A DNA stretch of 64,000 nucleotides, from positions 32,001 through 96,000 of the IMG/VR virus record IMGVR_UViG_3300042261_001309; one strand, 5' to 3'. This document shows positions 1 to 38,011 of the stretch, piece by piece. This DNA comes from a virus. The notes beneath the pieces were generated by a model, which was not told the DNA's origin, ran no database searches, and worked only from the letters and a program-made list of their open reading frames with translations. The position numbers and the translations under genes are program-made. Positions within the stretch are counted from its first letter, which is position 1, and the number at the start of each line of letters is the position of its first letter.

Positions 1-3000
1 GGTGCCTTAAATTTCCGACACATAACCTACAATACCGCCACAGTAGCCTCTGTAGAATGTAGGAGAACAGTTGATGACGCAGTCGGGCAATTAGTATTTA
101 CAACCGCGCCAGGCTCAGCATCCCCAGCTGTTGATAGAATGATTATTACGGCTGACGGCAAAATAGGTATAGGTACCGTCATACCGACTGCAAATTTGCA
201 TGTTTATTCAGGCTCCAATTATGGTTCACCTTCATTGTCAGCTGATACTTACAATTTATTTAAAATTGGAACCGCATTAAGTCCAGAATTAGCATTTGGT
301 AGCTACAGCGCTTCGCCATATGCAATGTGGCTACAAACTAAAACAACTGCCAATAATGGAACATATTGGCCGCTGGCGATTAATCCATTGGGAGGCAACG
401 TTGGGATTGGTACTTCTGCACCATCGGCTCTTTTGCACGTAAACGGGAATACGTATGTCAGCGGTACGTTAACTTTAAGTAATTTAACTGGCCATTTATA
501 CGCAACCAACGGTAGCGTTGGAGTTACTTCAGTTTGGACCGGTAATGCACCTACACCCGCTGCGCACAATATATTAGATTCTACTGTTCATGGCGATACA
601 TTAACAACCGCTGTTGCACGAGGATCTATTATAATTGGCAATAGCACGCCAAAATGGACAGCGCTAGGAATAGGTACTACAGCAGGATACGTATTAAAAA
701 CCAGTGGAACAGATCCATATTGGGCTTTGTTAGATACTAATCATCATTCTCTTCAGGGATTAGGTGACGACGATCATACACAATACGCTTTATTAGCCGG
801 ACGAACAGGTGGGCAAACGCTATACGGTGGCACAGCTGCGGCAGATAAACTAATCCTTCATGGATCCACTGCGGGTACTGGCGCCATATATATTAATCCT
901 GGAAATGCTGGAGTAGTTATCGGTGGTACTGGCTCTGATTCCACCGTAGCTCGTCTATACGTTGTAGCCGACAGTAAAAGCGCTCTCCGCACCGATGCCA
1001 GCTATACGGCAGCACTTGGTGAAACCGTTACCACCACATGTACAGCGTTTGCGAATTATCAAGATATCGTTAATAGCGGTACGATGACAAATTATGTATA
1101 TAATAATTACTCCAGCTTAACGTTAGGTGGAACCGGTAGTTTTGCAAATGCTGTAAATATTTTTGCTTATACAAAATTAACTGGTGGCACAGCTAAAACG
1201 GTTACAGCCTTAACGCAATATTTAAGTCGTATTTATGCAGATGCAACTCCAAATGCGGGAACTATCACTTCGGCTTATCATTTTAAAGCCGACGACGCAA
1301 CCGACAATTTAACAATAACCACCCAATACGGGCTGTACATATCCGCATTAACTAAAGCTTCAACTAATTGGGCAATTTATACTGCGGGCACAACGCCAAG
1401 TTATTTTGGTGGTGCCGTGACCATTGGTGGCGCAATTAGTTCAGGCTCACTTTCCGTTGGTTCGTTGACTGGCGTATTAAAAGCAAGTGCCGGAACAGTA
1501 ACTGCAGGCAGCGTAGCTCTAGGCTCTGAAGTAACTGGAACACTACCTATAACTAATGGTGGCACAGGCCTAGCTACTGTTGCAATTGGTTCTATTTTAG
1601 CCGCTAATTCTGCCGATGCGCTAAGCGCAGTCACTTCTGCTAGTGGAACTAAAATACTTAAGAACGTAAATGGTGCCATTTCTTGGGATACTGTCTCGGG
1701 TATTAGCGGTGTAAGCGGCACAGGTACTACTGGCTATATGGCTCGTTGGACAAATTCAACAACCATTGCTGCTTCATCTGTATTATATGACGATGGTACT
1801 AATGTTGGAATTGGTACGACTTCACCAGTAGAGACACTGACGATTTATAAACCAGCAGGATCAAATTCTAGTCTATCCCTAGGCGATGGTGATGTTGCTC
1901 ACGGCGTTACTTCCCTAGCCAAAACAAACGTATGGCTGCTTGCAAATGAACATACTACCGATAAAGGTGGTGCGCAATTAACAGGCTTTTCAGATGCCCC
2001 AGATAATCCAGCCTTCGAAATAAAAGGCGTAAATACCACCGATCCAGATACAAATATACCGGCTATTACGCTAGATGGTTATAGCGCAAACGGTACCGGC
2101 GTTAAAGCCTTGGCCGCCACAAAAACTGTTTTACAAATTCAAAACAGCGGCTCAGCTTTAATGAGCATTTTAGGTAATGGTAATGTCGGAGTTGGAATAA
2201 CTAATCCAGAAACTAGCTTAGTGGTGGCCGGCCCCACCGTGTATTCCAACCCTACATTTACACACTATCAAAATTTAGCCTATTACAGCTACAGTGGTGC
2301 GCCAACTGAAACAGGTACAAAGATAATTACGCTACCTCAAGGTTGGACCAGCACCATGATGTCGATAACTGTTAAGGGTTACGATTACAGCGGTAATGGC
2401 GGCTGGGAAGCGATCGTAAGTGGCTATAATTATGCTCCTAGCCCAACTTGGATTAATACTTCTGCAGAAATACGAGGAAAAGCACCGTTCACATCCGTAC
2501 GCTTAGGTTATAACACAACTAGCAGTAAAATGGTTCTAATGCTTGGAACCTCTACCACCGTTTGGAATTATCCTAAATTATCTGTCAGTGACTTTTATGC
2601 TGGGCACAGTAACGTAACAGGTTGGGGTACAGGTTGGTCAATTATCAACGATCCCACTGAAACAGGTATTGGATCGGCGTACACTGTTAACGTAACAGCA
2701 CCAATATGGATTGATTCTAACGGGGCCGTAGGTATCGGTACAAGCATTCCGACTAGTCACGCACCAAACCGTAAATCAGTAATTATTTCTGATACGGCTA
2801 ATGACGCGTTACTTGAGATTTGGGGACAAAGTGGGCAAAAATCAATCGTCCAATCCGCCGGTGGAAATACTTACATGGGGGTATTAGCTGGCCCGGGTAA
2901 CTTAAATCTTACCTACGGCCCCAGTGGTAATGTCGGGTTAATCATGCAAAATACCACGGGTAATATAGGTATAAATACTACCGACTTTACCGGGTATAGG

Positions 3001-6000
3001 TTAAACGTAAACGGTAATACAAATATCACTGGTACGCTAACAGCCAGTAGTTTGCTAAGCGCCAGCGCACAGATAGTCTATCCTTACGCTAAAACTGATA
3101 CGACTTTAAGGACGGGCATATCCATTTATAGTAACGATAGCACAAATCAATTTAACGTAGCTATTGCAATGCTTGGCGGTGCGTCTCAATCGGCTAGAAC
3201 CGCAGTAATTCAAACCTCGGAAGCTGGTGTATCTAACACAGGAAACATAGCACTACAAGTCTACGGTGGAAATGTTGGAATTGGAACAGCCGCTCCAACA
3301 GCAAAATTAACAATCGTCGGAAATTCTTTAACTGGGGCAGAGGCTACTTACGGTGGTTACATTAAAATCATTGGCGGAGGAGGAGCCTTAACGTCTACTG
3401 GAGGTATTGAATTTTGCGCAGCTACTAGTGGCGCAGGTTATGGTTTTCGTATAGCCAATCCTGATTTGGGTACCGGAGAATGCCCGTTGTATATAATGAG
3501 CCGTTGCGTAAGTGCTTCTTGGACACTAGCGATGTCTATTCTTGGTTCAAATGGGTTTGTGGGTATTGGCAGTGCCACCCCTACACAAAAATTAGATGTA
3601 GCTGGAAATATTGTGGCTTCCGGTTCTGTTGGTGCTACAACCGTATATCCAATTGCGGATAATTCCTATACTTCAGGCTCAAGCTATGCACGCTGGTCAA
3701 CGGTTTATGGTGTAAATGCAGACTTCAGTGGCAGCTTAACGGTTAAAGGCCTTTATAATACCTCAGATTATACTGAACGAGTATTTCAAAGCGCGGCAGC
3801 ATTTGTGAATGGCGAAGCCGACAAGGCTGTAGATATACGGCTATCAAATTCAATCTGGGGATGGATTGAGCTGGAAGTGACAGGCTCATATTATATCGAT
3901 AATACAACTGGTAAATTAACAAAGATATTTGCTTTTGGTGGTAACGACGGAGCACTGTATTTACAGAATACGCGTGTTAGTGATGCAATGGGGTATATCT
4001 CCAGCCATATAACAATAGGTGACATTGTTTGGGATGGTGCAGTAAGTAAATGGAAAATAACCGTATATCACACTTCTACTTACGGCAATACTTACACATT
4101 CAAATTAAGGTCATTTAGTCATGGCGGTGCTGCGTCATTATTATCCGGTGCGGCAGTTTCTGCGATATACACGGCTGCGTCACCACTAACAAGGCAATAT
4201 ACCTATTATAACGATCGTTTAGGCGTCGGTACCTCAACCCCAGCTGAAGTATTAGACGTAAACGGAAATATCGCGTTACCTGGAGCTACCAATTATTTAA
4301 CTTTTGGTGGCGGGGCCGGAGGCAGTAGAAGATTGAAGCTATATGAAACTTCGGTTATTCATGCTGGATTAGGAATCGACTTAGCTGGTGGCCCATACGA
4401 ATTAAGTATATACGGCATGGCCGGTGATGCAGGGCAAGGAAGGATAAGTTTTGGTTTTGCAGCAAATGCCAATCCCGGAACATACAGCGAAAAAGTAAGT
4501 TTCTTGAATAGTGGTAATGTTGGGATCGGTATAACTAATCCAACCGGTAAATTGCAGGTATCAATGCCAGGTATGGCTGCGTCATTAACCTATACGCAAC
4601 CAGGGTTATTGCAATTAACTGATACTACAGGCCCAACGGAACTAGTATTTACTGTCGACGGTGTTGGACCTTACGCCGCAGCATTACAACACAGGCACGC
4701 CACATTGTCCGGTTACAGTTATCCAATAACAATTAATCCATTAGGCGGCAATGTTGGTATTGGTACTATAGCACCTTCTGAATTATTGCACGTAAACGGC
4801 AATATCTTAGCAACACGAATTAACTTCAGCGCTGGCGGAGCTATAGCGGGCACAGCTAACGGCCCAGCCATTTATTCTCAAGACGGCTCACTCGCAGGTA
4901 GGTTTTATAACGGTAACAATTATTTAAATGGCGCTCTCGTTATCCGTAGTGATGCTGATGTGCAAAACATGATTGTTACAGACACAGGCTACGTAGGCAT
5001 AGGTACGGCGTCACCGACAACAAAACTTGAGTCTAGCGCCGTATACGGCGATCCGGCGACTTCTGGCTCGAGTCCAAACGGTATGCTGGCACTGACAACG
5101 GCAAGTGCGTATCGGGGCATATATTTAGGAATATCGAGTAACGCCACCGCGAATTATCCTGGTTGGCTACAAGTATCAGATTGGAATGATTTATCTCAAA
5201 CTAGAAATTTCATTTTAAATCCTCGCGGTGGATACGTAGGTATTGGAACCGTAGATCCAACCGCAAAATTACATGTATATGGCGGCGGTGTTAATGTAGG
5301 CGGTTCCGTAACAAGCACAGGAGCCTCAATTAACGGGCTAACCGTCAGTCAAATTGTTCGTCCTGCAAGCGACAACACTTATACATTAGGCACCATCGGT
5401 TATCGTTGGAGTACTATTTACGGGGTAGATTGCGCGTTATCTGACGAGTTATCCGTTCAAGGGCGTATTTGGGGTACTGATTGTACATTTAGCGGAACCG
5501 TAACCAGCGCTAACTTAATCGGTGTAGCTAATGAAAATGTAGATTCTTCTTCCTATTGTTTAGGTGACATATCTTCTACCGAATGGACGTACGAGTATAA
5601 AGCTTTAGGTTATGGTGCAGATGTACAATCCAACTACACCGTTGATCCTACCTACGGAAAAGTAAATTGGCTTAACTATAATGGAGCGGCCGGGAATTAC
5701 GGGGTACTGTCTTATCGCATTTGCACTCCTGCGGCGGTAAGTAGTATTACATTTTCAGTTCCTGCAAAATTGGCACTGGGTGTATCTACAGCTATCGCAG
5801 TTGCCATTTATAATAGTGCGGCAAATACTGTGTTAGCTTCCACGGCCTATACGCTTACCAGTAATTGGCAAAATTGCACAGTTACCTATAACAGCCCCAG
5901 TGCAAATACAGAATATATTGTAGTTATTAACTGCAATAACGTAAGTGGCGCCAGTGTACAAGCTCAAGCGTTAGTTGGAAAAGCTACGTGCACAATGGCA

Positions 6001-8283
6001 GGTACTAACAACGGCATAACAGAAAGCAGTTACACTCGGCTTACAGTTACCAATGACGCATTGGAAGATGACCTTTGGAATATCCAATCCACTAGAGTAA
6101 ATATCGCTTCACCGTTCTCAAGATACGTCATCGATACCGACGCCACTACGTTAATGGTTGAAATGGTATCAACCATGCGTGCGGCAATTTCGAGTCTGGC
6201 ACATATTGCGTATAAGGTAAACGGAGAAGCTGCAGGCGTAATAGCAGCGACCACTAACGGCTTAGTAGAACAGCATGTAATTACGTTACCGGCTGGGCAT
6301 AAACGAGTAGAATTTATTAATGGTCCAACTTCAAAGCCCAGTGCAACTATTTTAGGTACTTGGCTACGCGCAATATTTGTACCCGGCACGGCCAGAGTGG
6401 CTACTGTAAAAAGTAAGGTAAACGATTGCAGAATAGCAATCTATGGTGACAGTATTTGCGTTGGTAATAGTGATACAAGTGCCGCACTTCAAGCTTGGCC
6501 GGTTCAACTACGTGAACGTAACGTAGGCAGCGTAGCTGTAGATGCTTACGGATGGCGTAATCTATGGGATGACAAAAACGATTCCGCCGGTTGGTATGTA
6601 CCACTAGCTAGATCAATTAATCGCTTTAAACCTACTCATATTTGGTTAGCTATCGGAACAAACGACTATGGGCTGTATAAACAAAATGCTGCAAGTTTCC
6701 GTAAAACTTACGATGCCTTGCTTGATTTATTACACGCTCAAAATCCTCAAGCAAAAATATTCTGTCAGTCGCCGATAACTCGAACAGATTCTCCTTCTCC
6801 TACGTACGAAGTAATCGCAAACTATAGAACAGCCGTATCGGCAAGCGCTACAGCCCGACCGGATTTTGCGCATTTCGTGGACGGTACCGCAATTATTGCA
6901 TCTGGAGATTTAGCAGACGGCGTGCATCCAACCACAGCGGGTGATTATAAATTTGCACAGTACGTAGAAAACTTTATTCGTACTTATCGGGATAATAACA
7001 CCTTTAATACAGTTCAAACCCTTAGCGCACTTATACCTACGCAGGTAGGCCAGACTATTTATGGCGCACCCAGCCAAACGGCAGATTTATTCCAAGTTGG
7101 CAATAACGCATCAGACAGTACGCTAAGCATTTATTCTGTATTCGATAGTGCGGGTAAACTCGGTGTTGGTTGCAATACGCCAAAACAAAAATTGCAAATC
7201 GGCAATAACTGGACCGGCAGCTACGATTCAAGTAGAAGCGTATTAGTAAATCCAGCTGGGACACAAAATGTAATACCCAGCGTTAATATTTCTGACATTG
7301 CCAGTACGAATACCACGGCTTATATCAAAGCAATCGGGTTAAATATCCATAACGACGATATTACCACTACCGGTACCCGTGTTCCTGCCCTAGCTTTTTC
7401 AAGAAGGGCTAATGCAACGTATACTGATGTATTAGGAGCTATTGATGCAATAGATATCGGTTCAGGCCAAGATGCCAATTGGAGAGCTGGTGCGCTAACA
7501 TTTCATACAGCTGAGGAAGCAGGCACCGGCATAATCGAAAGAATGCGAATAAATGGAACAGGCCTAGGTATCGGTACAACTACACCTGGCGCCAAATTGG
7601 ACGTGGTTGGCAGCATACAAGCAACTGGTATCGTACATGCAGGTTCAACTTCAGGATTTGCTAATTCAACCTATGCTGTAAATTCCAGAAATCCGATTTG
7701 GAGATTTGCTAACGCGTCAACTTACGGCTTAAGTTATTTCCAAGGCTCAGCTGGATTAGATGGCGCAAACGATACGATTGGTATTCATTTTGGAACAGCT
7801 ACAGCGGCTGGCTCACAATACCAATTTAATTTATCCGGTGCGTTTACGTTAGGCGGTAAAATAGGTATTGGCGTAACTAATCCATCCAGTAAATTATCGT
7901 TTGGTAATGCCTCAGCCAGTGCCTTGCAACGTATAGCCTTATACGAAACTTCAACCAGTACGTATTTTTATGGTATTGGTATGGCTAATCCGGCCACCGA
8001 TATTTATGGATTAGGCTTATGGTCTAGTACCGATACTGCAGTGGTATCCGACACCAACATGCAGGTGTTTATAAAAAATAATGGCAACATCGGTATTGGT
8101 ACATATTCAGCTGATGCAAAATTACATATTCGTGGAACCGCTTCAACAAACGCATTTAAATTCGATACCTTGGCAACAGCCACTGGTACAAAGACGTTGC
8201 AGGGTTATATCACCGTAAGTTTGGTTGGGTCTGGAAATTCGAATTTAGCTAACGGAACTTATTATATTCCATTGTATCAATAA
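1..8283 (+). CDS. Giant modular tail fibre/tail spike-like protein with internal SGNH/GDSL esterase domain (5' truncated)
   Basis: Frame is open from base 1 (GALNFRHITY...), so the gene starts before the window. Gly/Thr/Ser-rich with many GNVGIGT-type repeats. SGNH blocks GDS (6445-6453), GTND (6655-6666) and DGVHP (6916-6930). Confidence 0.8.
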   Translation, partial: GALNFRHITYNTATVASVECRRTVDDAVGQLVFTTAPGSASPAVDRMIITADGKIGIGTVIPTANLHVYSGSNYGSPSLSADTYNLFKIGTALSPELAFGSYSASPYAMWLQTKTTANNGTYWPLAINPLGGNVGIGTSAPSALLHVNGNTYVSGTLTLSNLTGHLYATNGSVGVTSVWTGNAPTPAAHNILDSTVHGDTLTTAVARGSIIIGNSTPKWTALGIGTTAGYVLKTSGTDPYWALLDTNHHSLQGLGDDDHTQYALLAGRTGGQTLYGGTAAADKLILHGSTAGTGAIYINPGNAGVVIGGTGSDSTVARLYVVADSKSALRTDASYTAALGETVTTTCTAFANYQDIVNSGTMTNYVYNNYSSLTLGGTGSFANAVNIFAYTKLTGGTAKTVTALTQYLSRIYADATPNAGTITSAYHFKADDATDNLTITTQYGLYISALTKASTNWAIYTAGTTPSYFGGAVTIGGAISSGSLSVGSLTGVLKASAGTVTAGSVALGSEVTGTLPITNGGTGLATVAIGSILAANSADALSAVTSASGTKILKNVNGAISWDTVSGISGVSGTGTTGYMARWTNSTTIAASSVLYDDGTNVGIGTTSPVETLTIYKPAGSNSSLSLGDGDVAHGVTSLAKTNVWLLANEHTTDKGGAQLTGFSDAPDNPAFEIKGVNTTDPDTNIPAITLDGYSANGTGVKALAATKTVLQIQNSGSALMSILGNGNVGVGITNPETSLVVAGPTVYSNPTFTHYQNLAYYSYSGAPTETGTKIITLPQGWTSTMMSITVKGYDYSGNGGWEAIVSGYNYAPSPTWINTSAEIRGKAPFTSVRLGYNTTSSKMVLMLGTSTTVWNYPKLSVSDFYAGHSNVTGWGTGWSIINDPTETGIGSAYTVNVTAPIWIDSNGAVGIGTSIPTSHAPNRKSVIISDTANDALLEIWGQSGQKSIVQSAGGNTYMGVLAGPGNLNLTYGPSGNVGLIMQNTTGNIGINTTDFTGYRLNVNGNTNITGTLTASSLLSASAQIVYPYAKTDTTLRTGISIYSNDSTNQFNVAIAMLGGASQSARTAVIQTSEAGVSNTGNIALQVYGGNVGIGTAAPTAKLTIVGNSLTGAEATYGGYIKIIGGGGALTSTGGIEFCAATSGAGYGFRIANPDLGTGECPLYIMSRCVSASWTLAMSILGSNGFVGIGSATPTQKLDVAGNIVASGSVGATTVYPIADNSYTSGSSYARWSTVYGVNADFSGSLTVKGLYNTSDYTERVFQSAAAFVNGEADKAVDIRLSNSIWGWIELEVTGSYYIDNTTGKLTKIFAFGGNDGALYLQNTRVSDAMGYISSHITIGDIVWDGAVSKWKITVYHTSTYGNTYTFKLRSFSHGGAASLLSGAAVSAIYTAASPLTRQYTYYNDRLGVGTSTPAEVLDVNGNIALPGATNYLTFGGGAGGSRRLKLYETSVIHAGLGIDLAGGPYELSIYGMAGDAGQGRISFGFAANANPGTYSEKVSFLNSGNVGIGITNPTGKLQVSMPGMAASLTYTQPGLLQLTDTTGPTELVFTVDGVGPYAAALQHRHATLSGYSYPITINPLGGNVGIGTIAPSELLHVNGNILATRINFSAGGAIAGTANGPAIYSQDGSLAGRFYNGNNYLNGALVIRSDADVQNMIVTDTGYVGIGTASPTTKLESSAVYGDPATSGSSPNGMLALTTASAYRGIYLGISSNATANYPGWLQVSDWNDLSQTRNFILNPRGGYVGIGTVDPTAKLHVYGGGVNVGGSVTSTGASINGLTVSQIVRPASDNTYTLGTIGYRWSTIYGVDCALSDELSVQGRIWGTDCTFSGTVTSANLIGVANENVDSSSYCLGDISSTEWTYEYKALGYGADVQSNYTVDPTYGKVNWLNYNGAAGNYGVLSYRICTPAAVSSITFSVPAKLALGVSTAIAVAIYNSAANTVLASTAYTLTSNWQNCTVTYNSPSANTEYIVVINCNNVSGASVQAQALVGKATCTMAGTNNGITESSYTRLTVTNDALEDDLWNIQSTRVNIASPFSRYVIDTDATTLMVEMVSTMRAAISSLAHIAYKVNGEAAGVIAATTNGLVEQHVITLPAGHKRVEFINGPTSKPSATILGTWLRAIFVPGTARVATVKSKVNDCRIAIYGDSICVGNSDTSAALQAWPVQLRERNVGSVAVDAYGWRNLWDDKNDSAGWYVPLARSINRFKPTHIWLAIGTNDYGLYKQNAASFRKTYDALLDLLHAQNPQAKIFCQSPITRTDSPSPTYEVIANYRTAVSASATARPDFAHFVDGTAIIASGDLADGVHPTTAGDYKFAQYVENFIRTYRDNNTFNTVQTLSALIPTQVGQTIYGAPSQTADLFQVGNNASDSTLSIYSVFDSAGKLGVGCNTPKQKLQIGNNWTGSYDSSRSVLVNPAGTQNVIPSVNISDIASTNTTAYIKAIGLNIHNDDITTTGTRVPALAFSRRANATYTDVLGAIDAIDIGSGQDANWRAGALTFHTAEEAGTGIIERMRINGTGLGIGTTTPGAKLDVVGSIQATGIVHAGSTSGFANSTYAVNSRNPIWRFANASTYGLSYFQGSAGLDGANDTIGIHFGTATAAGSQYQFNLSGAFTLGGKIGIGVTNPSSKLSFGNASASALQRIALYETSTSTYFYGIGMANPATDIYGLGLWSSTDTAVVSDTNMQVFIKNNGNIGIGTYSADAKLHIRGTASTNAFKFDTLATATGTKTLQGYITVSLVGSGNSNLANGTYYIPLYQ

Positions 8284-8298
8284 ATTAAAATAGCCTAC

Positions 8299-8327
8299 TT
8301 GACACGCTAAGGCGTATCGAATATATT
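8299..8327 (+). promoter_or_regulatory. Sigma70-type promoter
   Basis: TTGACA (8299-8304), 17-nt spacer, TATATT (8322-8327), with ATG at 8338. Confidence 0.7.
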
Positions 8328-8337
8328 GAACGGACAT

Positions 8338-8751
8338 ATGAGCAAAATACAATTAACACCAAATCAAGTACTGGCCACTATCAACGCGATCGTCAAGCTG
8401 GAAGGTGCACCTTCTGGCGATCCTAAAGAGGCGCCAGTCTCTAAATACAACTTCAAGGCCAAGGTCCTATATGGCTTGGCTAAGAATTATAATACGCTGA
8501 AGCGCTTGGTAGAAGATATTGAATCTACCCGGCAGAAGACACTGAAGAAATATCAAACTGAAGGGGAAGCTAATCTCGGAGAAGCCCAGGCGGCTAAATT
8601 CTCTGCTGATTTTTCTGACTTCCTTAATACGCCGCTGGATGTCGATCTGCACCAAGTGGACATCAACGAAATTGATTTGGACCTGAACCAAATTCCAATT
8701 TCAGTATTGGCCGACTTGGCCGGTCGAGTATTTACCGGTGATCTGAAGTAA
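8338..8751 (+). CDS. Hypothetical phage protein (helical)
   Basis: ORF-track ORF 8326..8751; ATG at 8338 is preferred because the TTG start overlaps the -10 box. Confidence 0.7.
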   Translation: MSKIQLTPNQVLATINAIVKLEGAPSGDPKEAPVSKYNFKAKVLYGLAKNYNTLKRLVEDIESTRQKTLKKYQTEGEANLGEAQAAKFSADFSDFLNTPLDVDLHQVDINEIDLDLNQIPISVLADLAGRVFTGDLK

Positions 8752-11372: not shown

Positions 11373-11582
11373 CTACTTACAGGCTGAATTCAACACTTTC
11401 TTCAAAGAACGGATTTGTGCCCCATTTAACAGCACTTCTTGTCCGTCTATCTCGAAGAATAATTGACTGCGCTTATGTGAGCCTTTTTTAGCTTTGGCAT
11501 ATTCGCAATAAATTTTGCTGTTCTTAATCGCCGACAATTTATGTGTACGATTAAATACTACAGTTAAACGATTATTTCTCAT
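11373..11582 (-). CDS. Hypothetical protein
   Basis: 69-aa ORF with an ATGA overlap to recA. Confidence 0.6.
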   Translation of the reverse strand: MRNNRLTVVFNRTHKLSAIKNSKIYCEYAKAKKGSHKRSQLFFEIDGQEVLLNGAQIRSLKKVLNSACK

Positions 11583-12781
11583 GACGTTATATCTATTGTT
11601 TTTTCTGTTTGTTGTTCATTGGTTGTACTCTTTTTACGGCGAGTCTTCCGGGTATTTTCAACTTGCTGAATTTCTTCTATTGGTGGTAAGTCTGGAATAC
11701 CAAAGGCTTTACGAATGTGTTCTTTAGCCTCATTGCTTCTTGCAATCTGTAAGGCTAATTCAGTACATCGATACTGTTCATCAGAATTAATTAATACCGG
11801 TTCATTATTTTCCAGCTTCAATGTAAGACTAGGAGGGCCAACCCAACGAAAATACCCGCTGCCGTTATCAGCTACCAGATCGGTATAGCTTTCACCAAGC
11901 TTACGAACCAGCGGACCCCACCAATCCATACCGCCATTAATATAAAGGTCTACTTCTACTTCTTGCCCTTTACCTTCACGACCTAACTTATTTCGCTTAC
12001 ATTGAATTTTATGCCTAGAACCTGTTTTACGCGGCGCACCATGTTCATCGTTGTCTTCAAACTCTTTGGTACGCGCAAACTTAAAATGATATGTAGAATA
12101 AAAGAATTGCGATTCACCGCCAAGCAAGGCGTCTTGTGAGTCATCTGAAAACCCAAAAGCGCCAATTTTACTTCTCAGCTGGTTAATCAACAAAATGTTG
12201 CATTTTTCATTCGCTAGCAATCTGTCTGTTTCACGGAAGAAACGACTAAGTCTACGAGCGTGCACGCCAGGTTGTGAATCTGTAAGTGTATGCTTGGCAT
12301 CCAATTCGTCTTCTGTGGCAATACCTGCAATTGAATCCAAACATAGTAATACAGGCGTGTCACCTTCAGGATACGCTTTAGGCATACTACGTAGATACAT
12401 CTCAATTAGCTCTAAACCCTGCTCAAACGATTCAGGATGCTGAATGGTTACTTTACTTAGGTCTACGCCTTGCTTAACTGCATAATCACGATCAATGGCG
12501 TTCTCAGTTTCAATCCAAACTACGTCACCACCATTCGCTTGGTATAATTTGGCCAGCTCGTAAAATGTGCTGGTTTTTCCGCTGCCTTTCCTTCCGTATG
12601 AAAGAATAAATCTACCATACGCAATAAAGCGCCGATCAAGAATAAATTCCAATAACGGATTATCGACTATCAAACCCGTAATTGGTTTTAAATCCTTCGC
12701 CAATACAAAGTCTACGTTTGAGTTTTTGTATTTCTTTTTAAACTGACTCGATGTTATGTCTATTAGATCTTTAAAAGCCAT
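11579..12781 (-). CDS. recA: RecA/UvsX-like recombinase
   Basis: Walker A GRKGSGKT, IETENAID, LCLDSIAG, INQLRSKIG and GGE motifs. Confidence 0.92.
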   Translation of the reverse strand: MAFKDLIDITSSQFKKKYKNSNVDFVLAKDLKPITGLIVDNPLLEFILDRRFIAYGRFILSYGRKGSGKTSTFYELAKLYQANGGDVVWIETENAIDRDYAVKQGVDLSKVTIQHPESFEQGLELIEMYLRSMPKAYPEGDTPVLLCLDSIAGIATEDELDAKHTLTDSQPGVHARRLSRFFRETDRLLANEKCNILLINQLRSKIGAFGFSDDSQDALLGGESQFFYSTYHFKFARTKEFEDNDEHGAPRKTGSRHKIQCKRNKLGREGKGQEVEVDLYINGGMDWWGPLVRKLGESYTDLVADNGSGYFRWVGPPSLTLKLENNEPVLINSDEQYRCTELALQIARSNEAKEHIRKAFGIPDLPPIEEIQQVENTRKTRRKKSTTNEQQTEKTIDITS

Positions 12782-13957: not shown

Positions 13958-14551
13958 TTAGAGATGCATTACTACTGCTTGTTTTGTGTCTTCGGCACGG
14001 AGGTGGTTCAAAAATACCTGAACCATCATTGCCGCTACTATAATAGGTGTTGTGTGCGATTTTTGATTTTGTTTGTCGTAAGGTAATAGGCATCCATGGC
14101 GTTCTTGGCTTTTAAAATTGTAGTATCCTTCAATCTCTTGCTTAGCGCAACTAGAATTAAAAACCCCGAAACTGCGGGATGCGCAACGGCCGTCACATAC
14201 CCATAAATTATCCTGATGTTCATAGACGTAATCAAACAATTTCTTTCTGAAACTGCCTTCGTCTACGCATGAAAAAATATAGTTATAATTCCCAAAATCA
14301 TCTTCAGTCATGAAGCGATCAATAGGATTTACAACAAACTGATTTGATAGCACTACAGCTTTTTTCTTTCCAATGTCTTCGATGGAAAACCGCTGATGAA
14401 GTAGATTATCGATTTCTACTATATCGTTATCGTACAAGTCTATTTCAAAATTATCAGTATCCCATTGTTTACGGTTATAGCCGTAATCATGAAGAATACT
14501 GACCAAGTTTGATCCAAGTCCACCAGCGCCAGCGATACCGATTTTTATCAT
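13958..14551 (-). CDS. ThiF/MoeB/E1-like adenylyltransferase (ubiquitin-like protein activating enzyme)
   Basis: GAGGLGS nucleotide-binding loop, DNDIVEIDNLLHQ, GKKKA, SCVD..R and DGR motifs; candidate catalytic Cys in HGCLL. Confidence 0.9.
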   Translation of the reverse strand: MIKIGIAGAGGLGSNLVSILHDYGYNRKQWDTDNFEIDLYDNDIVEIDNLLHQRFSIEDIGKKKAVVLSNQFVVNPIDRFMTEDDFGNYNYIFSCVDEGSFRKKLFDYVYEHQDNLWVCDGRCASRSFGVFNSSCAKQEIEGYYNFKSQERHGCLLPYDKQNQKSHTTPIIVAAMMVQVFLNHLRAEDTKQAVVMHL

Positions 14552-14976
14552 ACTTTGAAAAAGCGTTTACCTATAAACGCATTTAATTGTTTATGCTTTT
14601 GTGAATAAATGAAGTTCATCCCGAAGCCGGGGAACAACCGATAAATATCTATGTCAGAAGGAAAAGCCTGAAATTGCGGATGAGTGTGTATGCTGGAATG
14701 GTTAAACCAACCGTCAAACAATATAGGTAGCACCTTGTCACCGTATTCCCAAGGATCCACTTCATACAACACACGAGCAATAACTGTTCCTGTATGCTTA
14801 TTTGCTAGGCGAATAAACTTAAATTCATCACCTTTAGATAAAATAACTCCGCCAGCTTCCTCAACCGGCGAAGTTAACTTATCTGGCATAGCTATTACGC
14901 ACTGCCGCAAAGCATCGGGTAGAACTAACCGGTTTTTAACTATATACGCACTGGCGAGTTCAGCCGAGGAATTCAT
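14548..14976 (-). CDS. JAB/MPN+ (JAMM) metallopeptidase
   Basis: E-AGG...HTHPxxxxxPSxxD complete JAMM motif; ATGA overlap with ThiF. Confidence 0.9.
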   Translation of the reverse strand: MNSSAELASAYIVKNRLVLPDALRQCVIAMPDKLTSPVEEAGGVILSKGDEFKFIRLANKHTGTVIARVLYEVDPWEYGDKVLPILFDGWFNHSSIHTHPQFQAFPSDIDIYRLFPGFGMNFIYSQKHKQLNAFIGKRFFKV

Positions 14977-14980
14977 AAGG

Positions 14981-17026
14981 CTAAGCTGCTTTTAACGTAG
15001 ATATGAATGAAACAGCATATTGATCATTAGCCAAGGCCAACAACCTGGAAACCAAGGCATCGTAGCCGACACCTTCATAGCTGTTACCATTTACAATGCA
15101 GATATACTTTCCAGTATCGTGATTCCAAACTTTAAACGGAGGTTCCTTAGATACAAAATAACTGCGTAACTTGCCTTTTACAAGATACCCTTTTTCACCG
15201 TGAGCTTCCGCTTCAGTACAGCCCAACTGCTCAACAATTTCAATTAGCAACTTCTCAGAACGCTGCTTAGCTTTAATGCGATCTGCACAAGCATAGCGAA
15301 TAATAGCCTCTTTTGTGGCGGGAGCGCCGGTTAAATCAGGACAAAATGCGCCTATACCTGCACAAAACTCGCGCTTTAAACGATCTGTTCTAGTAATACC
15401 ATCAGAACGTATACGCGTTTTACGATCGATAGTTTGCAGCCATTGCACACAGGAAGTGAATCGATTAACCTTAAAGTACTTAGGTTCTTCATTTTCAGGC
15501 TTATGAATCAAATACACCTGGTTATCCCGCATAATAAACTTAAGCTTAGGATGCCGAGGAGTCGCAGGACGTTTTAACTCATAACAATCATTATTTGTTC
15601 CTAACGTCTCGAACTTCATGAATACTCCATTAGTAAGAGCATTCCTAGCCAGCAGTGACATATTCTGAACATCCCGCAAAAACAAATTATATTGTTCTAT
15701 GCTGTGATAACATGTCGCATGGTTCAAGACAGCCTTTAACTCAGATTCATTAATACGATAACCGTTAATACGACGACGAGTATCTTTGGTTGAGATACTT
15801 AACGTAATAGGGATATCGTTGATTTTAAACGACACCTCTTTATCCTCTTTGAAGCCTAAGACATTTTTACAGTTAGACGTATCAAAACGGGATTCTGCAT
15901 CTTTATGCAACCGAGTTATATGCGTAGTAACTACATCAGTCACAATATTGTAAATAGTTAGAGGTACATTATCATTACTAGAATTACGATTAACCAACTG
16001 ATGCTTGAGCATTTCAGCTAACCATTCACACTCTACAGATACCGTTTCATAACTTACCTTGTTCTTAGCGATATCCATATCGTCAATTTTAAACGACGCT
16101 ATTTCCCCTGCCATTAACTTGGCGTATAAGGAATTCTTTGCATTGCACATCAATGTATAGGTGATACTTGCAGTAAATACAAAGTAATCCTTAAACATAC
16201 TCTGGACTGACCAAGACGTAGTTTCAGTTTTACCAACTACAGCTACGATTTTTTCCAGCTTCTGTATCTGTGTACGAATAAACTCGCGCTTATTACGTAC
16301 GTCCAGATAAGGAGTATCTTCCAATGGATTATTTTGCAGCTTAGTGCCCGCTAACCCAATCAGTATTAATAACTTATAAATATCGCAGTTTATTTCATCA
16401 AGCGCTAGGGGTATTAGCTTACCTCCGCGTCGATAAAATACCAAGAACCTTCCTTTATCCAAGTAATTATAAATAGGCGAAATATGCGTAGCTACAAACA
16501 CCCCCGGCACGAGTGGTTTGGTACTACCTGCAGGCACCCAAGTGGGATCCTTTACAGCTTCCGTCGATTGCGCTGTTGGTGAAGCCAATATACGGTAAGT
16601 AACTTGGTCTGCCACAACTTCAACCGGGTTATCCGTTATCTTGGTAACGAGCGGCTCGTAAGCAGATCGGGATAAATAATACGAAGAAGCCCAAGCTACG
16701 CTAATACTATCCGCAAATTCTTCTGTATAAACATTTAGCTTCTTAATTTGGGCTAGGGCTACCTTATCATTCCATTTTAACGACAAGCCCGTAAGCCACC
16801 CTATGCTTGTGGTAAATGGCGTTTCCAACCAATCTGAAGTTACATACCCTACCGTTTCGCAGGCGTCTGCAAGTTCTTTGAGTTTATTAATGGAGATCTT
16901 TTCAATTTTATAAGTGGCGAAAAAATCGTTGGAAGAAATTACAATCGATTCGCTAGGGGCCTGGTGAGCTTTTAAAAGCTCTTGGTACATTTGAGCTAAT
17001 TTAATAGAAGATATGGTGATAGACAT
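14981..17026 (-). CDS. Large uncharacterised protein of the Ubl operon with a C-terminal Cys-containing, possibly E2-like, domain
   Basis: 681-aa ORF between Ubl and JAB; C-terminal WNHDTGKYICIV...DALVSRLLAL. Confidence 0.6.
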   Translation of the reverse strand: MSITISSIKLAQMYQELLKAHQAPSESIVISSNDFFATYKIEKISINKLKELADACETVGYVTSDWLETPFTTSIGWLTGLSLKWNDKVALAQIKKLNVYTEEFADSISVAWASSYYLSRSAYEPLVTKITDNPVEVVADQVTYRILASPTAQSTEAVKDPTWVPAGSTKPLVPGVFVATHISPIYNYLDKGRFLVFYRRGGKLIPLALDEINCDIYKLLILIGLAGTKLQNNPLEDTPYLDVRNKREFIRTQIQKLEKIVAVVGKTETTSWSVQSMFKDYFVFTASITYTLMCNAKNSLYAKLMAGEIASFKIDDMDIAKNKVSYETVSVECEWLAEMLKHQLVNRNSSNDNVPLTIYNIVTDVVTTHITRLHKDAESRFDTSNCKNVLGFKEDKEVSFKINDIPITLSISTKDTRRRINGYRINESELKAVLNHATCYHSIEQYNLFLRDVQNMSLLARNALTNGVFMKFETLGTNNDCYELKRPATPRHPKLKFIMRDNQVYLIHKPENEEPKYFKVNRFTSCVQWLQTIDRKTRIRSDGITRTDRLKREFCAGIGAFCPDLTGAPATKEAIIRYACADRIKAKQRSEKLLIEIVEQLGCTEAEAHGEKGYLVKGKLRSYFVSKEPPFKVWNHDTGKYICIVNGNSYEGVGYDALVSRLLALANDQYAVSFISTLKAA

Positions 17027-17057
17027 AAAGATTGAGAATGAGAATAAGAGTTAGAAT

Positions 17058-17085
17058 AAAAAAGGGAGAGGCCGAAACCCCTCCC
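17058..17085 (-). terminator. Intrinsic terminator after the Ubl gene
   Basis: GGGAGGGGT-TTCG-GCCTCTCCC followed by T6. Confidence 0.75.
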
Positions 17086-17115
17086 ATTAACTGCCAGATT
17101 TTACAGCTTAACTAA

Positions 17116-17706
17116 TTACGCCACTTTAATAACCACTTCTTTGGGGTAGTCAGCGCCCAGCTCATTGATTTTACGAACATTCTGCAAATAGGTGCGCAGG
17201 CTTACTGTAAACTCAAGGAAGTCTACCGGGCAACTTAACGCATCCCGGCTGATAACAATTACGTTCTCACCATCCAGCATAAAGGCATTCTCAAAAGCCT
17301 CAAGCTGATTTAATACCACTTGGGTTTCGTCGTCGACTTCTTCGTCTTCTTCGACCACTTCAGCTTCCATGATGTTAGCCTTTTCCAATGCGGCTAAAAC
17401 GGAAGAAGAAATAATAGCCGCCAATTCTTGAGGATTAATATCTGCACCGCCGAGCAGTTCGGTGCCGAGCGTGACTGTAAGACCGTCAGGCATTTCCTCT
17501 AGCCGCGCACGCAGATCGGCCGTATCTTGATAGATAGCTGGATCTTTTTCGTTAGTGGCAGTGAACATGAACGGATCTTTGCCCAAATAGGGTCGGCACT
17601 TCTTGGTGAGGTATTCTTTAACAATTGCTTCTACGGCGGCGCCAATCTCCATGGCTACGGTATTATCGCCTTCGTGATTCAAGAAACGAACATTGATGTT
17701 TTTCAT
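17116..17706 (-). CDS. Putative ubiquitin-like (beta-grasp) protein precursor: ~87-aa Ubl ending LLGG plus ~109-aa acidic extension
   Basis: ATG at 17706 lies 8 nt after the upstream stop; strand-strand-helix start, terminal strand LTVTL, then GTELLGG (GG at 17446-17451); in operon context with JAB and ThiF. Confidence 0.6.
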   Translation of the reverse strand: MKNINVRFLNHEGDNTVAMEIGAAVEAIVKEYLTKKCRPYLGKDPFMFTATNEKDPAIYQDTADLRARLEEMPDGLTVTLGTELLGGADINPQELAAIISSSVLAALEKANIMEAEVVEEDEEVDDETQVVLNQLEAFENAFMLDGENVIVISRDALSCPVDFLEFTVSLRTYLQNVRKINELGADYPKEVVIKVA

Positions 17707-17713
17707 ATGTTTT

Positions 17714-18439
17714 TTAGTGTATGCGGAATTGAATGTTGCGGAGTTTGATTTTGTCGGAATAAGTAAGGCAAAGCTTGCATTGTGCACACGCACCAAGCTT
17801 AGGTTTATTTTTAACTTTTCCTGTTATTTCAGGACAAGCTATCCACCGCTTACTAATCGGCGGGTTGTTACCCATAAACGCAATGCCTACATTATTATAA
17901 TGACTATATTTGTCGCTTAATTTTTGCGCTTCCTGATAATTTACAGGATCCGCCGAAATGTACAACGCCAAGTTTTTGCATTCAGCCAAAATAGGCACGG
18001 CAAAGAACGACCGGGTGTAAACCCAGAATTTAACTTCAGAATACTTATTAATAACAGCTGCCCAAGCTTTCGCTTCGACTTCTGTCTTTATATCACCACT
18101 ATAACACAAACGGAAATACGGAGCACGACCCTTATCTTTTTTAATAAAACTGACAATCGTCGAATCGAAGATGGCAAACAGCTCGTCAAAGGATTTACCG
18201 GCCAGTAATTCTGTATTAAATAATAACCATTTGCCGACATCCTTGTATGCTTTTATAATGTTATCCATATAACAAGTGAGCTGTTTGCCCCCTACTTTTT
18301 TCAGTGCGAGGCACCCTCCTTTTTCTGAAGTTGCGCCTGGGCATGTTCCTCCGTTTTGCGGGAGACCTGGATTAAACCCTACTGTGTTACAATGCTCAGA
18401 GTAGAATTTAACTTTTGAATTATCTGTAAGGTGTAACAA
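17714..18439 (-). CDS. Gp88-family protein (Cys-rich, radical-SAM-like)
   Basis: NSK, TCPGA..C..CY, FRLCYSGD, FWVYTRS, ISAD and C-terminal CP..CxxCxxC. Confidence 0.7.
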   Translation of the reverse strand: MLHLTDNSKVKFYSEHCNTVGFNPGLPQNGGTCPGATSEKGGCLALKKVGGKQLTCYMDNIIKAYKDVGKWLLFNTELLAGKSFDELFAIFDSTIVSFIKKDKGRAPYFRLCYSGDIKTEVEAKAWAAVINKYSEVKFWVYTRSFFAVPILAECKNLALYISADPVNYQEAQKLSDKYSHYNNVGIAFMGNNPPISKRWIACPEITGKVKNKPKLGACAQCKLCLTYSDKIKLRNIQFRIH

Positions 18440-20059: not shown

Positions 20060-20871
20060 TTAGATTTAGGCGGCACCGGCGTAATAACCGCTTTTTCTGG
20101 AGAACAACCACGTCGCAAACGCCCGCGAATAGTGTGCGTTGAAATGCCTGTTCGTTTACTCCAACCTGTAATAGACAACGTTACACCATCAACTGTGATA
20201 TTGCGGGCGTGCGGATCTGGGCTATTAGGCCGTCTAGTTACATTCGCGGGAGTAGCTAACGCTTCTTCTGGCGCCCAGCCGTTAGCTATTCTTCTAGCTA
20301 TTTGATTACTTGTAAGCCCTGTCCTTCTGGACCATTCGGCAATAATGCGTGTTTCTCCGTTAGCTGTGATATTTATATTGCGCCTAGTATTGGCAGTTTG
20401 AACACTTCGGTTAGCCCATCTGCAATTTTCTGGTGAATAATCCTTCTCGTTATCGACACGATCGAGAGTTAATCCCAAAACAAACGATGAAAACATATCC
20501 GTCACGAAATTTTCAAATCCTGACAGACCTTGCCATCTGGCACAAACAGTAATACCCCTGCCGCCGTAATGGTGATAATCTGTGTTATTTTTATCGAAAC
20601 ACCGCGATAACATGCTGTGATAAGCTCGATAAAACTTATATTTATGCTTATTTTTTTTAGACAAAAAGCCGTGTTTTCTGTTGGCTGTAAATCTTAGACA
20701 ACCGCAGGATTTTGTTGTTCCACGCAGCAAGTTGTGCCCATAGATTTCTTTTGTATTGCCACAATCACAAACACAGAGATATCTTGTATTTCTATTTATA
20801 TTGGCTGCGCGGTTGAGCACGATTAAACGCCCAAACCGTTGTCCTTCTAATTTATTTAAGCTTACTTCCAT
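20056..20871 (-). CDS. Free-standing HNH-type homing endonuclease
   Basis: CVCDCG, SCGC, YGGRGITVC.RW and TLDRVDN..DYSPENCRWA motifs; two C-terminal HTH-like repeats. Confidence 0.85.
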   Translation of the reverse strand: MEVSLNKLEGQRFGRLIVLNRAANINRNTRYLCVCDCGNTKEIYGHNLLRGTTKSCGCLRFTANRKHGFLSKKNKHKYKFYRAYHSMLSRCFDKNNTDYHHYGGRGITVCARWQGLSGFENFVTDMFSSFVLGLTLDRVDNEKDYSPENCRWANRSVQTANTRRNINITANGETRIIAEWSRRTGLTSNQIARRIANGWAPEEALATPANVTRRPNSPDPHARNITVDGVTLSITGWSKRTGISTHTIRGRLRRGCSPEKAVITPVPPKSK

Positions 20872-23621
20872 ATCCAGGAGGCGCTATCAAAGCACCACTT
20901 AGTTTCACCGGCGAAGATTTTTTCCTTACCTTTCCAACAGGTTGTGGCAATCATTTCCATGCCCAATGTAGTCCCCGTGGGAAGCTTACAATGTTCAGTA
21001 ATGAAATACTTAACCAAACTTGGAAAATAGTTATCTCTAAATAAGTCTTTGTTTACGCACCATTGTATGTCGTCATGAACCGTATTAAGTGCGAACACTT
21101 TGGTCATCCATAATTTTTGCTTCTGCAATTCTTTTTTAATACAAATGCATATATCCCAAAACAACTGAGCTAACACACTGGCGATACACCAAGCTAAGGC
21201 GGTATTATACTGTGCAGATTTAACCCCAATATTTGCGGATGGCTCAAAATAAAATCGAGTTCCGTAAATATTATCCACATACTTATTACGATCTACACTA
21301 TCCTTAACGCTCTTTCTGAAAGCCATATATTGCTTATAGTGCTCCCAAGTCGTTAAAGCGTAAGATATGTCTTCTAATGGAATTAAGAAACCTGACTCTG
21401 AAAATATCTCAGCTTGAATAGGCACTACTGCTGATTGTAACTCAGCAGTATAAGCTACTCTAAACGTAATACCTTTTGCTGAAACATAACGAGATGTGTC
21501 GTCTTTAGTTAATTTATTGTTCTTAAAATACGTCTGCATCTTTTTAAGGTGAAAATCTCCCAATAGCATATCCGTGATATAATCCTTATCCTGTGACACA
21601 TAAGCAGCAATCATTAAATCGCTACCGGCTAAGTCAACCGAGGTATAAGCATAATTAGGATCACCTGTGTAAAAAATATTACGTATGTTAGCCGGTATTT
21701 TATCGGCAAACTGTTTTTGCTGTTCTTTCGATAATGTCGTATAACCCGGCACAAATATGTTGGGAATATGTGCCAACACTTTGGAGGCTGGATTCTGGAT
21801 GTTCGGCCTAGAGCTGCTTCTAAAGTTATCTAAACACTCGTAGAAATCTGCGTGTATTCGATTATCTTTAGTTAAGGCAGCCCAATAACTTTGCTTAATA
21901 GGTTCATCCTCTTCATCTTCTTCCGTATCTTCATAATTTGCCGTCTCGAAAGGTGTGCCACGTTGATTTAGGAATTTATTAGCGAATACACCTACCCTGT
22001 TCATATCCAATAAGATAGAAACAATTTTTAGTGCATCTGCTTGCGCTTCGGTAGGCTCGGCAGATAATTGATACTTTAATGTGCTAAGCGACTTATTATT
22101 AGATGAAGGCGCGTAATTCATCGCTGAAGGCTTTTTAGGCTTCTTCATATTTTCGAAATACGCTTTAGACTTAATCTTGCCACCCTTAGTGTAATAAGGC
22201 GGAGTAAGCTTTAACTTATCATATAGCAATGCCCGCTTATCTAACGCTGACGCTGGATTAAAGGATTCCAGGTATTTTGGTACAACCAAGGCTTCCAGCT
22301 GTTGATGCAACTCGGCGTATTTACCTTGATATTTTTCAGTGAGATCCTTAAGCAACGGCATATCAATTGGCACTCCCGTATTCTCAAGGTCTATGAAGTA
22401 ATTGCTAAGAGGTAAAAACGTATCCTTATAAAATGATTGCACTTTAATTGGTAAACGTTTCATCTTCTCCCGCATCGTCACACAGGCCGCATAATGTGCC
22501 ACAGCATCACCAGCGCAGTATTCATAAAATACTTCCGGTTCCTTATACTTGAGCATACATAAATCGCACTTGGCAATTTTATGCTCAGCTAGCTTTAAAT
22601 AGAACGGAACGTAATACGGCCGATAATCTGTGAACAACCTAATACCTGTTTCCAGCCCTTTACTATACCTCGAATCAATAAACCCCATGGCTTTCATACC
22701 GTCAAAAGCCAAGGTATGTTCAGGTAGATTAAAGCCACGTCGAATAAGCCGTTTATCGTCGACTTTGATATTCCAGCCCATTCGTTGAGCGTTTGGATGC
22801 TCAAACAACGGCTTTAATGTATTTAATAATTCTAGGTTTTCAACATTACCGTTACCCACCAAGTCTAAAACAACGGCGTGATGTGGCTCACAACAATACT
22901 GCATTGTACAAAGAATTTCAGTATCATCGTAAAGCCTTCCATCAGTAAACCATTCCCCATCGTAACCGACAGTCAACAAGCCACGAGCAATATAAGAATC
23001 TACAAGCTCTTTGCTTCTGGCTGGATCAGTTACGACTTCCCATGTGTAATCTGTGTAATGTAGCTCATCTCGAATGTATCGCTTAGCTATCTCAAATATA
23101 TCTCTAAACAATGGCCGAACCGAAGGATCCTGATTAACCAGCATCCCAATGGAATAATTAGGTATTATTTTACCGTAAGGGCTATCAATAACCTCGCCTA
23201 AGTAATCCCCCATCTTGGCGTTCTTTTTTATTACCCGTTTAAACGCTTCAGATCCCAACGGCATTATCAGCTTAGGTTTTACCATTTCCACCTCAAAGTC
23301 GAAAAGTGGTGCACACTCTTCAATCATTTCTTTAGATGGTTTTGGTGATCGCCCAATACTATATTTAACCATCGAAGTGACAATCACATCATTTCTGGTT
23401 AATCCTGCTGACGCTAAGGCATTATCAAATTCATCAGCATAATCACCTTCTTCCAACAATTTGCCATTTTCCAAGTCTTCGTGACCGGGGTGCGATAGCA
23501 CAATCATTAATGGCGCCGATATATTTTTCCAACAACCCATCCAGCTACGCCCATTAACGTGCTTGGTGGTGAATAAGTCATCTACAGTACTAAGTATTAA
23601 CGGTAAGTCCATTTGCTGCAA
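20862..23621 (-). CDS. polA: Family A DNA polymerase with N-terminal UDG-like domain and 3'-5' exonuclease
   Basis: UDG4-like N-terminus (ECAP..EVEMVKPKLIMPLG); exonuclease motifs YDGE, WNIKVD and YCAGD; polymerase motifs PNIQN, A (DLAGSDL), B (AKGITF..AY) and C (VHDD). Confidence 0.9.
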   Translation of the reverse strand: MQQMDLPLILSTVDDLFTTKHVNGRSWMGCWKNISAPLMIVLSHPGHEDLENGKLLEEGDYADEFDNALASAGLTRNDVIVTSMVKYSIGRSPKPSKEMIEECAPLFDFEVEMVKPKLIMPLGSEAFKRVIKKNAKMGDYLGEVIDSPYGKIIPNYSIGMLVNQDPSVRPLFRDIFEIAKRYIRDELHYTDYTWEVVTDPARSKELVDSYIARGLLTVGYDGEWFTDGRLYDDTEILCTMQYCCEPHHAVVLDLVGNGNVENLELLNTLKPLFEHPNAQRMGWNIKVDDKRLIRRGFNLPEHTLAFDGMKAMGFIDSRYSKGLETGIRLFTDYRPYYVPFYLKLAEHKIAKCDLCMLKYKEPEVFYEYCAGDAVAHYAACVTMREKMKRLPIKVQSFYKDTFLPLSNYFIDLENTGVPIDMPLLKDLTEKYQGKYAELHQQLEALVVPKYLESFNPASALDKRALLYDKLKLTPPYYTKGGKIKSKAYFENMKKPKKPSAMNYAPSSNNKSLSTLKYQLSAEPTEAQADALKIVSILLDMNRVGVFANKFLNQRGTPFETANYEDTEEDEEDEPIKQSYWAALTKDNRIHADFYECLDNFRSSSRPNIQNPASKVLAHIPNIFVPGYTTLSKEQQKQFADKIPANIRNIFYTGDPNYAYTSVDLAGSDLMIAAYVSQDKDYITDMLLGDFHLKKMQTYFKNNKLTKDDTSRYVSAKGITFRVAYTAELQSAVVPIQAEIFSESGFLIPLEDISYALTTWEHYKQYMAFRKSVKDSVDRNKYVDNIYGTRFYFEPSANIGVKSAQYNTALAWCIASVLAQLFWDICICIKKELQKQKLWMTKVFALNTVHDDIQWCVNKDLFRDNYFPSLVKYFITEHCKLPTGTTLGMEMIATTCWKGKEKIFAGETKWCFDSASWIWK

Positions 23622-36075: not shown

Positions 36076-36429
36076 TTAACTTACTTCGTATTTTTTTAGG
36101 AACTCACTAACTACGGTCAAGATATTGTCTCCTTCAGGTTGAATCACAAAATCATCAACCGTACCGTAGGCTTTTATAAACTCGCTGACATTTTTAGTCA
36201 ACCATTGGTTTAAGAAAGTTCTAAACTTAGCGTGACTAAACGATACTTCTTCAAGCTCGTTGCTGTTATCCTCGGCTGGTACAGAGATTACCAATAAACC
36301 GTCCTCCAGCCTATCTTTATTTATCTTACCTTTAATAGCCAACTCACACAAGGGCATCCTAAGTACCCCTGTTGATTTGGATGTTTTTAAAAACAGGGTG
36401 TCTAACTTGAAGTCCTCGTCTTGGGTCAT
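36076..36429 (-). CDS. Hypothetical protein
   Basis: 117-aa ORF with an ATGA overlap. Confidence 0.6.
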   Translation of the reverse strand: MTQDEDFKLDTLFLKTSKSTGVLRMPLCELAIKGKINKDRLEDGLLVISVPAEDNSNELEEVSFSHAKFRTFLNQWLTKNVSEFIKAYGTVDDFVIQPEGDNILTVVSEFLKKYEVS

Positions 36430-37965: not shown

Positions 37966-38011
37966 CACTTATCTTATGAATATACCGTTTCCGTATATTC
38001 GCTGTGTATCA

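Follow-up and report, generated by a model that had tools for sequence, protein, structure and literature searches.

Gene content of the cassette

The window analysed here is a stretch of 64,000 nucleotides (positions 32,001 to 96,000) of a 127,116-bp IMG/VR virus record, IMGVR_UViG_3300042261_001309, which is rated 61% complete. Pfam was used to scan 55 open reading frames (ORFs) of the window, in sets of nine and 46, and the families found clearly point to a tailed phage. On the minus strand, between positions 13958 and 17706, lie four genes that we read as a candidate ubiquitin-like conjugation cassette. They encode a putative ubiquitin-like (Ubl) precursor, a 681-aa protein with a loosely E2-like (conjugating enzyme) end, a JAB peptidase and an E1 (activating enzyme) adenylation protein. 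An initial annotation, made from the sequence alone, had described four co-oriented adjacent genes, and the minus-strand ORFs were found as it described them.

The Ubl precursor gene (17116..17706, minus strand) encodes 196 aa from an ATG at 17706. The longest ORF, 17116-17796, opens with a TTG; the ATG start is supported by relatives, three out of three of which begin at the same MKNINV. Residues 1-87 of the translation (17446-17706, minus strand) form the predicted modifier, ending in LLGG, and residues 88-196 (17119-17445, minus strand) the predicted removable extension. Between this gene and that of the 681-aa protein (14981..17026, minus strand) sits a terminator-like hairpin (17064..17085, minus strand) with a 9-bp stem, 6 G-C pairs and a T-run. 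It was detected by a consensus scan only, which found 10 such sites in the region versus 7.0 expected. The end of the 681-aa gene is separated by 4 nt from the ATG of the JAB gene (14548..14976, minus strand, 142 aa). The JAB stop overlaps the start of the E1 gene (13958..14551, minus strand, 197 aa) as ATGA, which bears out the coupling proposed for this pair.

The 197-aa protein is a minimal ThiF-type E1 adenylation domain. It matched PF00899 (E 2.5e-12, 46.9 bits versus a 28.1-bit cut-off), and the GAGGLG motif noted earlier was located at residues 8-13. Together, the ATP loop, the adenylation motifs and the PF00899 match place it in the E1/ThiF superfamily. Across 18 aligned sequences, GxGGxGS, DxD and an Asn (nucleotide/magnesium motifs) were kept, as were a Lys, Asp97, Arg102 and Cys154 (codon 14090-14092, minus strand). 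The cysteine was present in 30 of 33 distinct E1s, the remaining three being truncated pieces. Its distance from Asp97, 57 residues, presumably equals the spacing from the magnesium Asp to the loop Cys in E. coli ThiF and MoeB. The best PDB matches of the E1 family profile were a ThiF-type protein (9egc, 2.1e-7), MccB, Cap2, UBA3, TcdA, ThiF and MoeB.

The full JAMM motif that had been claimed for the 142-aa protein could be read in its translation (E39/E40, H97-x-H99, S107 and D110, that is ExnHxHx7SxxD). This zinc site makes it a member of the JAMM/MPN+ metallopeptidases. The Pfam Prok-JAB model matched below its 25-bit cut-off (21.2 bits, E 2.7e-4), and a hidden Markov model (HMM) of the relatives' JABs matched at E 2.7e-6. 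The exact motif was found in 10 of 12 metagenomic JAB homologues, and the position adjoining E1 was conserved among the relatives' loci. The peptidase is predicted to cut the precursor after G87, and perhaps also to deconjugate.

The internal LLGG was present at residues 84-87 of the 196-aa protein, where it had been announced. Since a Gly-Gly (GG) often arises in shuffled sequences (anywhere in the protein in 6406 of 20000 shuffles, and within residues 70-100 in 1091 of 20000), it is meaningful only through comparison. Conservation of the GG, which the initial annotation required, was borne out: the GG is aligned in 21 of 21 sequences, and 10 of 10 further metagenomic homologues contain it. 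What follows the GG differs widely: at the 10 metagenomic loci 0, 1, 2, 2, 2, 3, 4, 15, 78 and 87 residues come after it, 75 do so in the related viral locus L031, and 109 in the window. Thus the C-terminal feature of Ubl proteins, a conserved GG that is either exposed or extended, is found here next to an E1 gene. A Ubl precursor that undergoes trimming would look like this, with a conserved GG, a tail of any length behind it, and a JAB and an E1 as neighbours. JAB-dependent trimming of a precursor was shown for BubAB (PMC11601596).

A family of large proteins with a candidate E2 domain

A word-indexed search with the 681-aa protein gave two relatives. The profile of these three sequences retrieved 497 representatives at E<=0.001, and 331 at 1e-10, from a library of 1.84 billion proteins. 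Members are mostly 600-790 aa long, their last ~100 residues being the best conserved, and are annotated in their sources as "hypothetical protein". Pfam assigned no family to 43 members, giving a single sub-threshold match to DUF7737 (19.9 bits), and PHROGs gave no match for 25 members. The candidate E2 family is absent from four profile libraries (Pfam, NCBIfam, PHROGs and PADLOC). When one genome per species was scanned for 185,579 prokaryotic species, a single locus was obtained: a 9.9-kb contig of a metagenome-assembled genome, with the same phage-like cassette on it. We conclude that this is an essentially viral family.

Identity with DUF7737 (PF24879) was considered and rejected: the window's genome had no match at E<=1, and the 27-bit cut-off was not reached. 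In relatives, 5 of 16 matched below the cut-off (best E 2.9e-4), and a profile search for longer proteins returned the 681-aa family itself only.

AlphaFold, run on the 681-aa protein with 60 family members, gave a usable model (pLDDT 81.1, pTM 0.72). For this model Foldseek found no PDB structure at E<=0.001; in BFVD it matched three viral proteins, all unnamed (E 4e-9 to 8e-8). No convincing structural match was obtained for the N-terminal 580 residues. The C-terminal domain, about residues 585-681 (14984-15274, minus strand), appears in the model to be loosely E2/UEV/RWD-shaped. Cys643 (codon 15098-15100, minus strand) falls in the model after the last strand (633-635) and before the long helix (656-666), which we take to be the site of the catalytic cysteine in E2 enzymes. 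It was kept in 34 of 35 distinct domains. The exception, with Ser for Cys, is a stand-alone paralogue: at L037:3441-3812, an extra 123-aa copy of the E2-like domain is encoded between the large gene and the JAB gene. The proposal that the 681-aa protein is a candidate E2 has thus gained structural support, new but weak, and an invariant cysteine. Inspection of the family alignments showed no conserved HPN-like motif, and the profile of the C-terminal domain matched no E2 family in PDB or Pfam.

The four genes co-occur in related viral DNA, as the initial annotation required: their linkage was followed through 29 viral loci, L031 and 13 metagenomic loci. The 29 loci form a far clade (L002-L030) with 19 distinct large proteins. 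In all 29, an E1 homologue lies 0.3-1.7 kb downstream of the large gene, on the same strand (E 1.6e-12 to 2.4e-20). Directly after the large gene, all 29 encode a 74-88-aa protein, which ends exactly in GG in 27 loci and in GGN or GGNAN in two. An ORF with a JAMM-type motif, read by eye, directly precedes E1 in 29 out of 29, and phmmer with the window JAB detected 11 of these ORFs at E<=0.01. Loci closer to the window share its gene order; in L031 it runs GP88, a 161-aa protein with an internal GG, the large protein, JAB, E1, a homologue of the window's 362-aa protein, and finally RecA. Of the 13 metagenomic loci, 10 reach far enough to show a Ubl gene, and in all 10 the HMM of GG-ended Ubls placed one immediately upstream of the large gene; JAB was found in 12 of the 13 and E1 in 11, the misses corresponding to contig ends. 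Deposited phages gave no match when queried with the DNA of the cassette, with the 681-aa protein, with the window E1 or with a far-clade member, and scans of viral contigs with the single 681-aa protein or with the alignment of three sequences were likewise empty.

Several loci carry additional ORFs. Those of 226-273 aa between Ubl and JAB, seen in seven loci, were examined as possible core genes and set aside: they are variable and look like insertions. In one subclade (L038-L043), an inserted ORF of 195-231 aa separates the large gene from JAB, its N-terminus resembling, by eye, a DEDD-type exonuclease motif. In L041 (6794-8568), a metagenomic relative, the E1 gene falls into a piece at 6794-6940 and another at 8095-8568, and the 323-aa ORF between them (7173-8144) is likely a mobile insertion. 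Most far-clade loci have, directly upstream of the large gene, a conserved protein of 121-144 aa that belongs to no known family (for example L005:7549-7977). There are 17 distinct upstream ORFs in 28 of the 29 loci, and one of them, that of L015/L016, seems by eye to be unrelated. The conserved protein may be an additional component or else a target; no homologue of this ~140-aa protein was found in the window's genome.

The cassette lies among genes of DNA metabolism. Of the two neighbours that had been named as following it directly, RecA was confirmed as RecA/UvsX downstream at 11579-12781 (PF00154, E 1.8e-28; phrog_97, E 3.4e-37). The label of single-stranded DNA-binding protein (SSB) was not: the 362-aa protein that bears it had no match in Pfam, NCBIfam, PHROGs or a profile search of PDB sequences. 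Other families in the window are a DnaB-type helicase, SbcC/Rad50, a gpA-type terminase, baseplate J, a sigma-70 region 3 protein and a family-A DNA polymerase (20862-23621), which is fused to a uracil-DNA glycosylase (UDG)-superfamily domain at its N-terminus (residues 34-145). A cysteine-rich GP88-family gene (PF17338, E 1.8e-20) is located upstream of the Ubl gene, at 17714-18439. In the window's clade (also L031:6001-6732, L034, L038-L043 and L045), this gene is either directly upstream of Ubl or separated from it by one ORF of ~210-265 aa; the far clade lacks it at this place. Farther away, a DUF3150 protein is encoded at 36426-37406, and an AAA+ ATPase is apparently split on the minus strand (37468-40107). 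A 370-aa ORF (38995-40107) covers PF00004 profile positions 1-73, a 166-aa ORF (37468-37968) covers positions 80-130 and the lid domain, and a 212-aa ORF of no family (38012-38650) lies between the halves, which suggests an inserted mobile gene or intron. Finally, a plus-strand ORF of 2714 aa (139-8283), open at the window start, contains a GDSL lipase/acylhydrolase domain at residues 2102-2268 and perhaps encodes a giant virion or tail-fibre protein.

Proposed pathway and competing explanations

We consider it somewhat probable that the cassette is a phage-encoded ubiquitin-like conjugation system working in four steps. The JAB would cut the 196-aa precursor after Gly87, exposing a Gly-Gly end. 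The 197-aa E1 would adenylate this end with ATP and take the tag onto Cys154. The tag would then move to the 681-aa protein, onto Cys643 of its small E2-like C-terminal domain, and the ~580 N-terminal residues of that protein would pick the target, a host or a phage protein. JAB may also reverse the mark. What the sequences show are the genes with their motifs, a linkage conserved in viral DNA, a conserved GG with an extension that varies in length, and two invariant cysteines. The chemistry of each step is inferred, as are the role of an E2 and the idea that some protein is targeted.

Several observations weigh against this proposal, and most concern the tag of the window, the weak point of the scheme. 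Its N-terminal 87 residues are very diverged. In hhalign, a 20-residue tail alone was aligned between the window tag and the GG-ended family, with a probability of 13%. The Ubl HMM matched L031 at E 1.1e-12 and the window protein at 0.014, both single-target E-values. The AlphaFold model of the 196-aa protein, built from four sequences, was poor (pLDDT 64.6) and had no beta-grasp topology; its structural matches were helical hairpins alone, with no beta-grasp among them. Neither Ubl family had a match among Pfam or PDB sequences. To this must be added the weakness of the E2 assignment. On the other side, an HMM of the window family matched L031 at a single-target E of 0.0034, colinearly and with the GGs in register. 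Because this sequence link, made via L031, is weak, the main grounds for orthology of the window tag are its position, its length and the GG. ESM Atlas look-ups with the 196-aa and 681-aa proteins returned no usable match.

Could the GG protein be a sulfur carrier instead? In that case the E1 would adenylate the GG end and, by way of its cysteine, help to make it a thiocarboxylate, and the 681-aa protein would be a sulfur-using enzyme, active for example in nucleotide or nucleic-acid thiolation as part of the replication module. Precedents are ThiS/ThiF, MoaD/MoeB, CysO/MoeZ with Mec+, and TtuB/TtuC. Among NCBIfam models, one for a ThiS adenylyltransferase matches the E1 best (E 2.3e-11), the invariant E1 cysteine suits a ThiF-type relay, and the position of the cassette among DNA-metabolism genes agrees with such a role. 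However, the ThiF and MoeB equivalog models scored far under their cut-offs (NF006395, 43.7 versus 159 bits; TIGR02356, 20.9 versus 275 bits). Moreover, the 55 window ORFs contain no rhodanese, cysteine desulfurase, ThiG/MoaE-like or PP-loop family, and, as the initial annotation had remarked of the vicinity, no thiamine, molybdopterin or cysteine-synthesis family either. Sulfur could still come from host enzymes, but an always-linked large protein with an E2-like end and an invariant cysteine has no evident use in this scheme. Bacterial sets of Ubl, JAB and E1 with sulfur-assimilation genes have been described (PMC1779556), and viromics pipelines count the thiF, moeB and mec genes of viruses among auxiliary metabolic genes for "sulfur relay" (PMC11041744). 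For the E1 family of this cassette, the latter label is probably wrong. We infer conjugation instead of sulfur transfer, and hold the sulfur carrier to be unlikely, while giving it more weight than the alternatives below.

A second alternative takes the 681-aa protein for the substrate and not the carrier, so that its tagging or self-tagging would switch its activity, as Cap2 does to the CD-NTase in type II CBASS, an antiphage signalling system based on cyclic oligonucleotides. The strict co-occurrence of this protein with E1, JAB and Ubl would fit, as would its N-terminal 580 residues, conserved and without known fold, and the doubts about the E2 domain already mentioned. The window protein and two relatives end in KAA or RHG, and modification through a Gly/Ala C-terminus was for this reason considered. 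It was rejected, the ends varying across 150 members (TL, TLK, TLR, long tails); with no conserved Gly/Ala there, the large protein does not itself serve E1 as a substrate the way a CD-NTase does. In addition, the invariant cysteine occupies an E2-like position. We regard this alternative as distinctly improbable; it is compatible with the conjugation pathway, because E2s commonly auto-modify.

That the cassette serves mainly to counter host immunity of the Bil or type II CBASS kind, for example with JAB as a deconjugase or the tag as a decoy, seems still more improbable: bacterial Ubl systems do act against phages (10.1101/2023.09.04.556158; PMC10097602; PMC11601596) and such conjugates are reversed by JAB peptidases (PMC11601596), but a lone deconjugase needs no E1 with intact motifs, no GG precursor and no E2-like protein, all of which are kept together in every locus of sufficient length, and no host system is indicated by the data.

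To return to conjugation, a broader claim would be that lytic phages of several uncultured lineages carry their own complete Ubl pathway and tag host or phage proteins during genome replication. Its parts would be a tag made as a precursor, a JAB that trims it, a minimal E1 with a cysteine, and large proteins that form a new family of E2 type. To this claim we give slightly less than an even chance. If it is true, a conserved, virus-encoded version in the replication module means that phages also write such marks, and biochemists are offered, for their tests, an E1 of very small size (197 aa) along with an E2-like family that is new.

Comparison with known systems

No account of this cassette was found in the literature on phage-encoded Ubl, E1 and JAB systems, in searches of text mostly outside subscription journals and supplements, and a prior description is possible. 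The topics found instead were host systems, Ubl-JAB pairs of phage tail assembly (PMC1779556) and viral "sulfur relay" genes (PMC11041744). In the papers searched, prokaryotic Ubl conjugation is a host-side matter, either of defence (Bil, type II CBASS) or of operons whose role is unknown (Bub, PRTRC).

Within cultured phages, the E1 has its nearest relative in a JAB-ThiF pair of the FpV4 group of Flavobacterium psychrophilum phages (E1-family HMM, E 3.7e-16). As in the window, the pair lies in a replication/recombination region. At this locus (L046, NC_041872.1 59040-69504), the E1 homologue follows a protein of 423 aa that Prok-JAB matches weakly (E 0.0076). The annotation of the E1 homologue as "thiamine biosynthesis protein ThiF" is doubtful. 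In contrast to our cassette, HMMs of the large-protein and GG-Ubl families found nothing there, and tblastn identity was 24-27%.

The plasmid PRTRC systems share with the cassette a small ThiF-type E1 on a mobile element, and TIGR03736 matched weakly (E 9.1e-9, 35 bits versus a 144.75-bit cut-off). However, no other PRTRC model matched the nine proteins, and no ParB family appeared in the Pfam scans. Type II CBASS has an E2-E1 fusion (Cap2), a JAB (Cap3) and no free Ubl, the CD-NTase C-terminus being the substrate, whereas here the GG protein is always present, E1 and E2-like protein are unfused, and the Pfam scans showed no CD-NTase.

Type I Bub consists of BubAB, a Ubl-E2 fusion, BubCD, a JAB-E1 fusion, and BubE; it forms Tyr/Ser oxyesters, lacks catalytic cysteines and has a DUF6527 protease (PMC11601596). 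The precursor trimming predicted here is a point of likeness. The differences are that both cysteines are invariant in our families, that DUF6527 was absent from the Pfam scans, and that JAB and E1 are separate genes.

In its parts the cassette recalls Bil (BilABCD), with the same four roles of Ubl, E2, JAB/JAMM and E1, and no E3 (PMC11601596). According to the same source, the Gly end of the Bil Ubl may need trimming, and the E2 is said to recognise targets directly, without an E3. The two differ in the architecture of E1, here a single 197-aa adenylation domain with its cysteine inside, and in the E2-like domain, which here ends a 681-aa protein of an unnamed family. They differ also in their bearer: Bil is host-encoded, whereas our cassette is encoded by a virus, among its replication genes. 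Were the pathway proposed above true, it would be the offensive, virus-side counterpart of bacterial Bil and CBASS.

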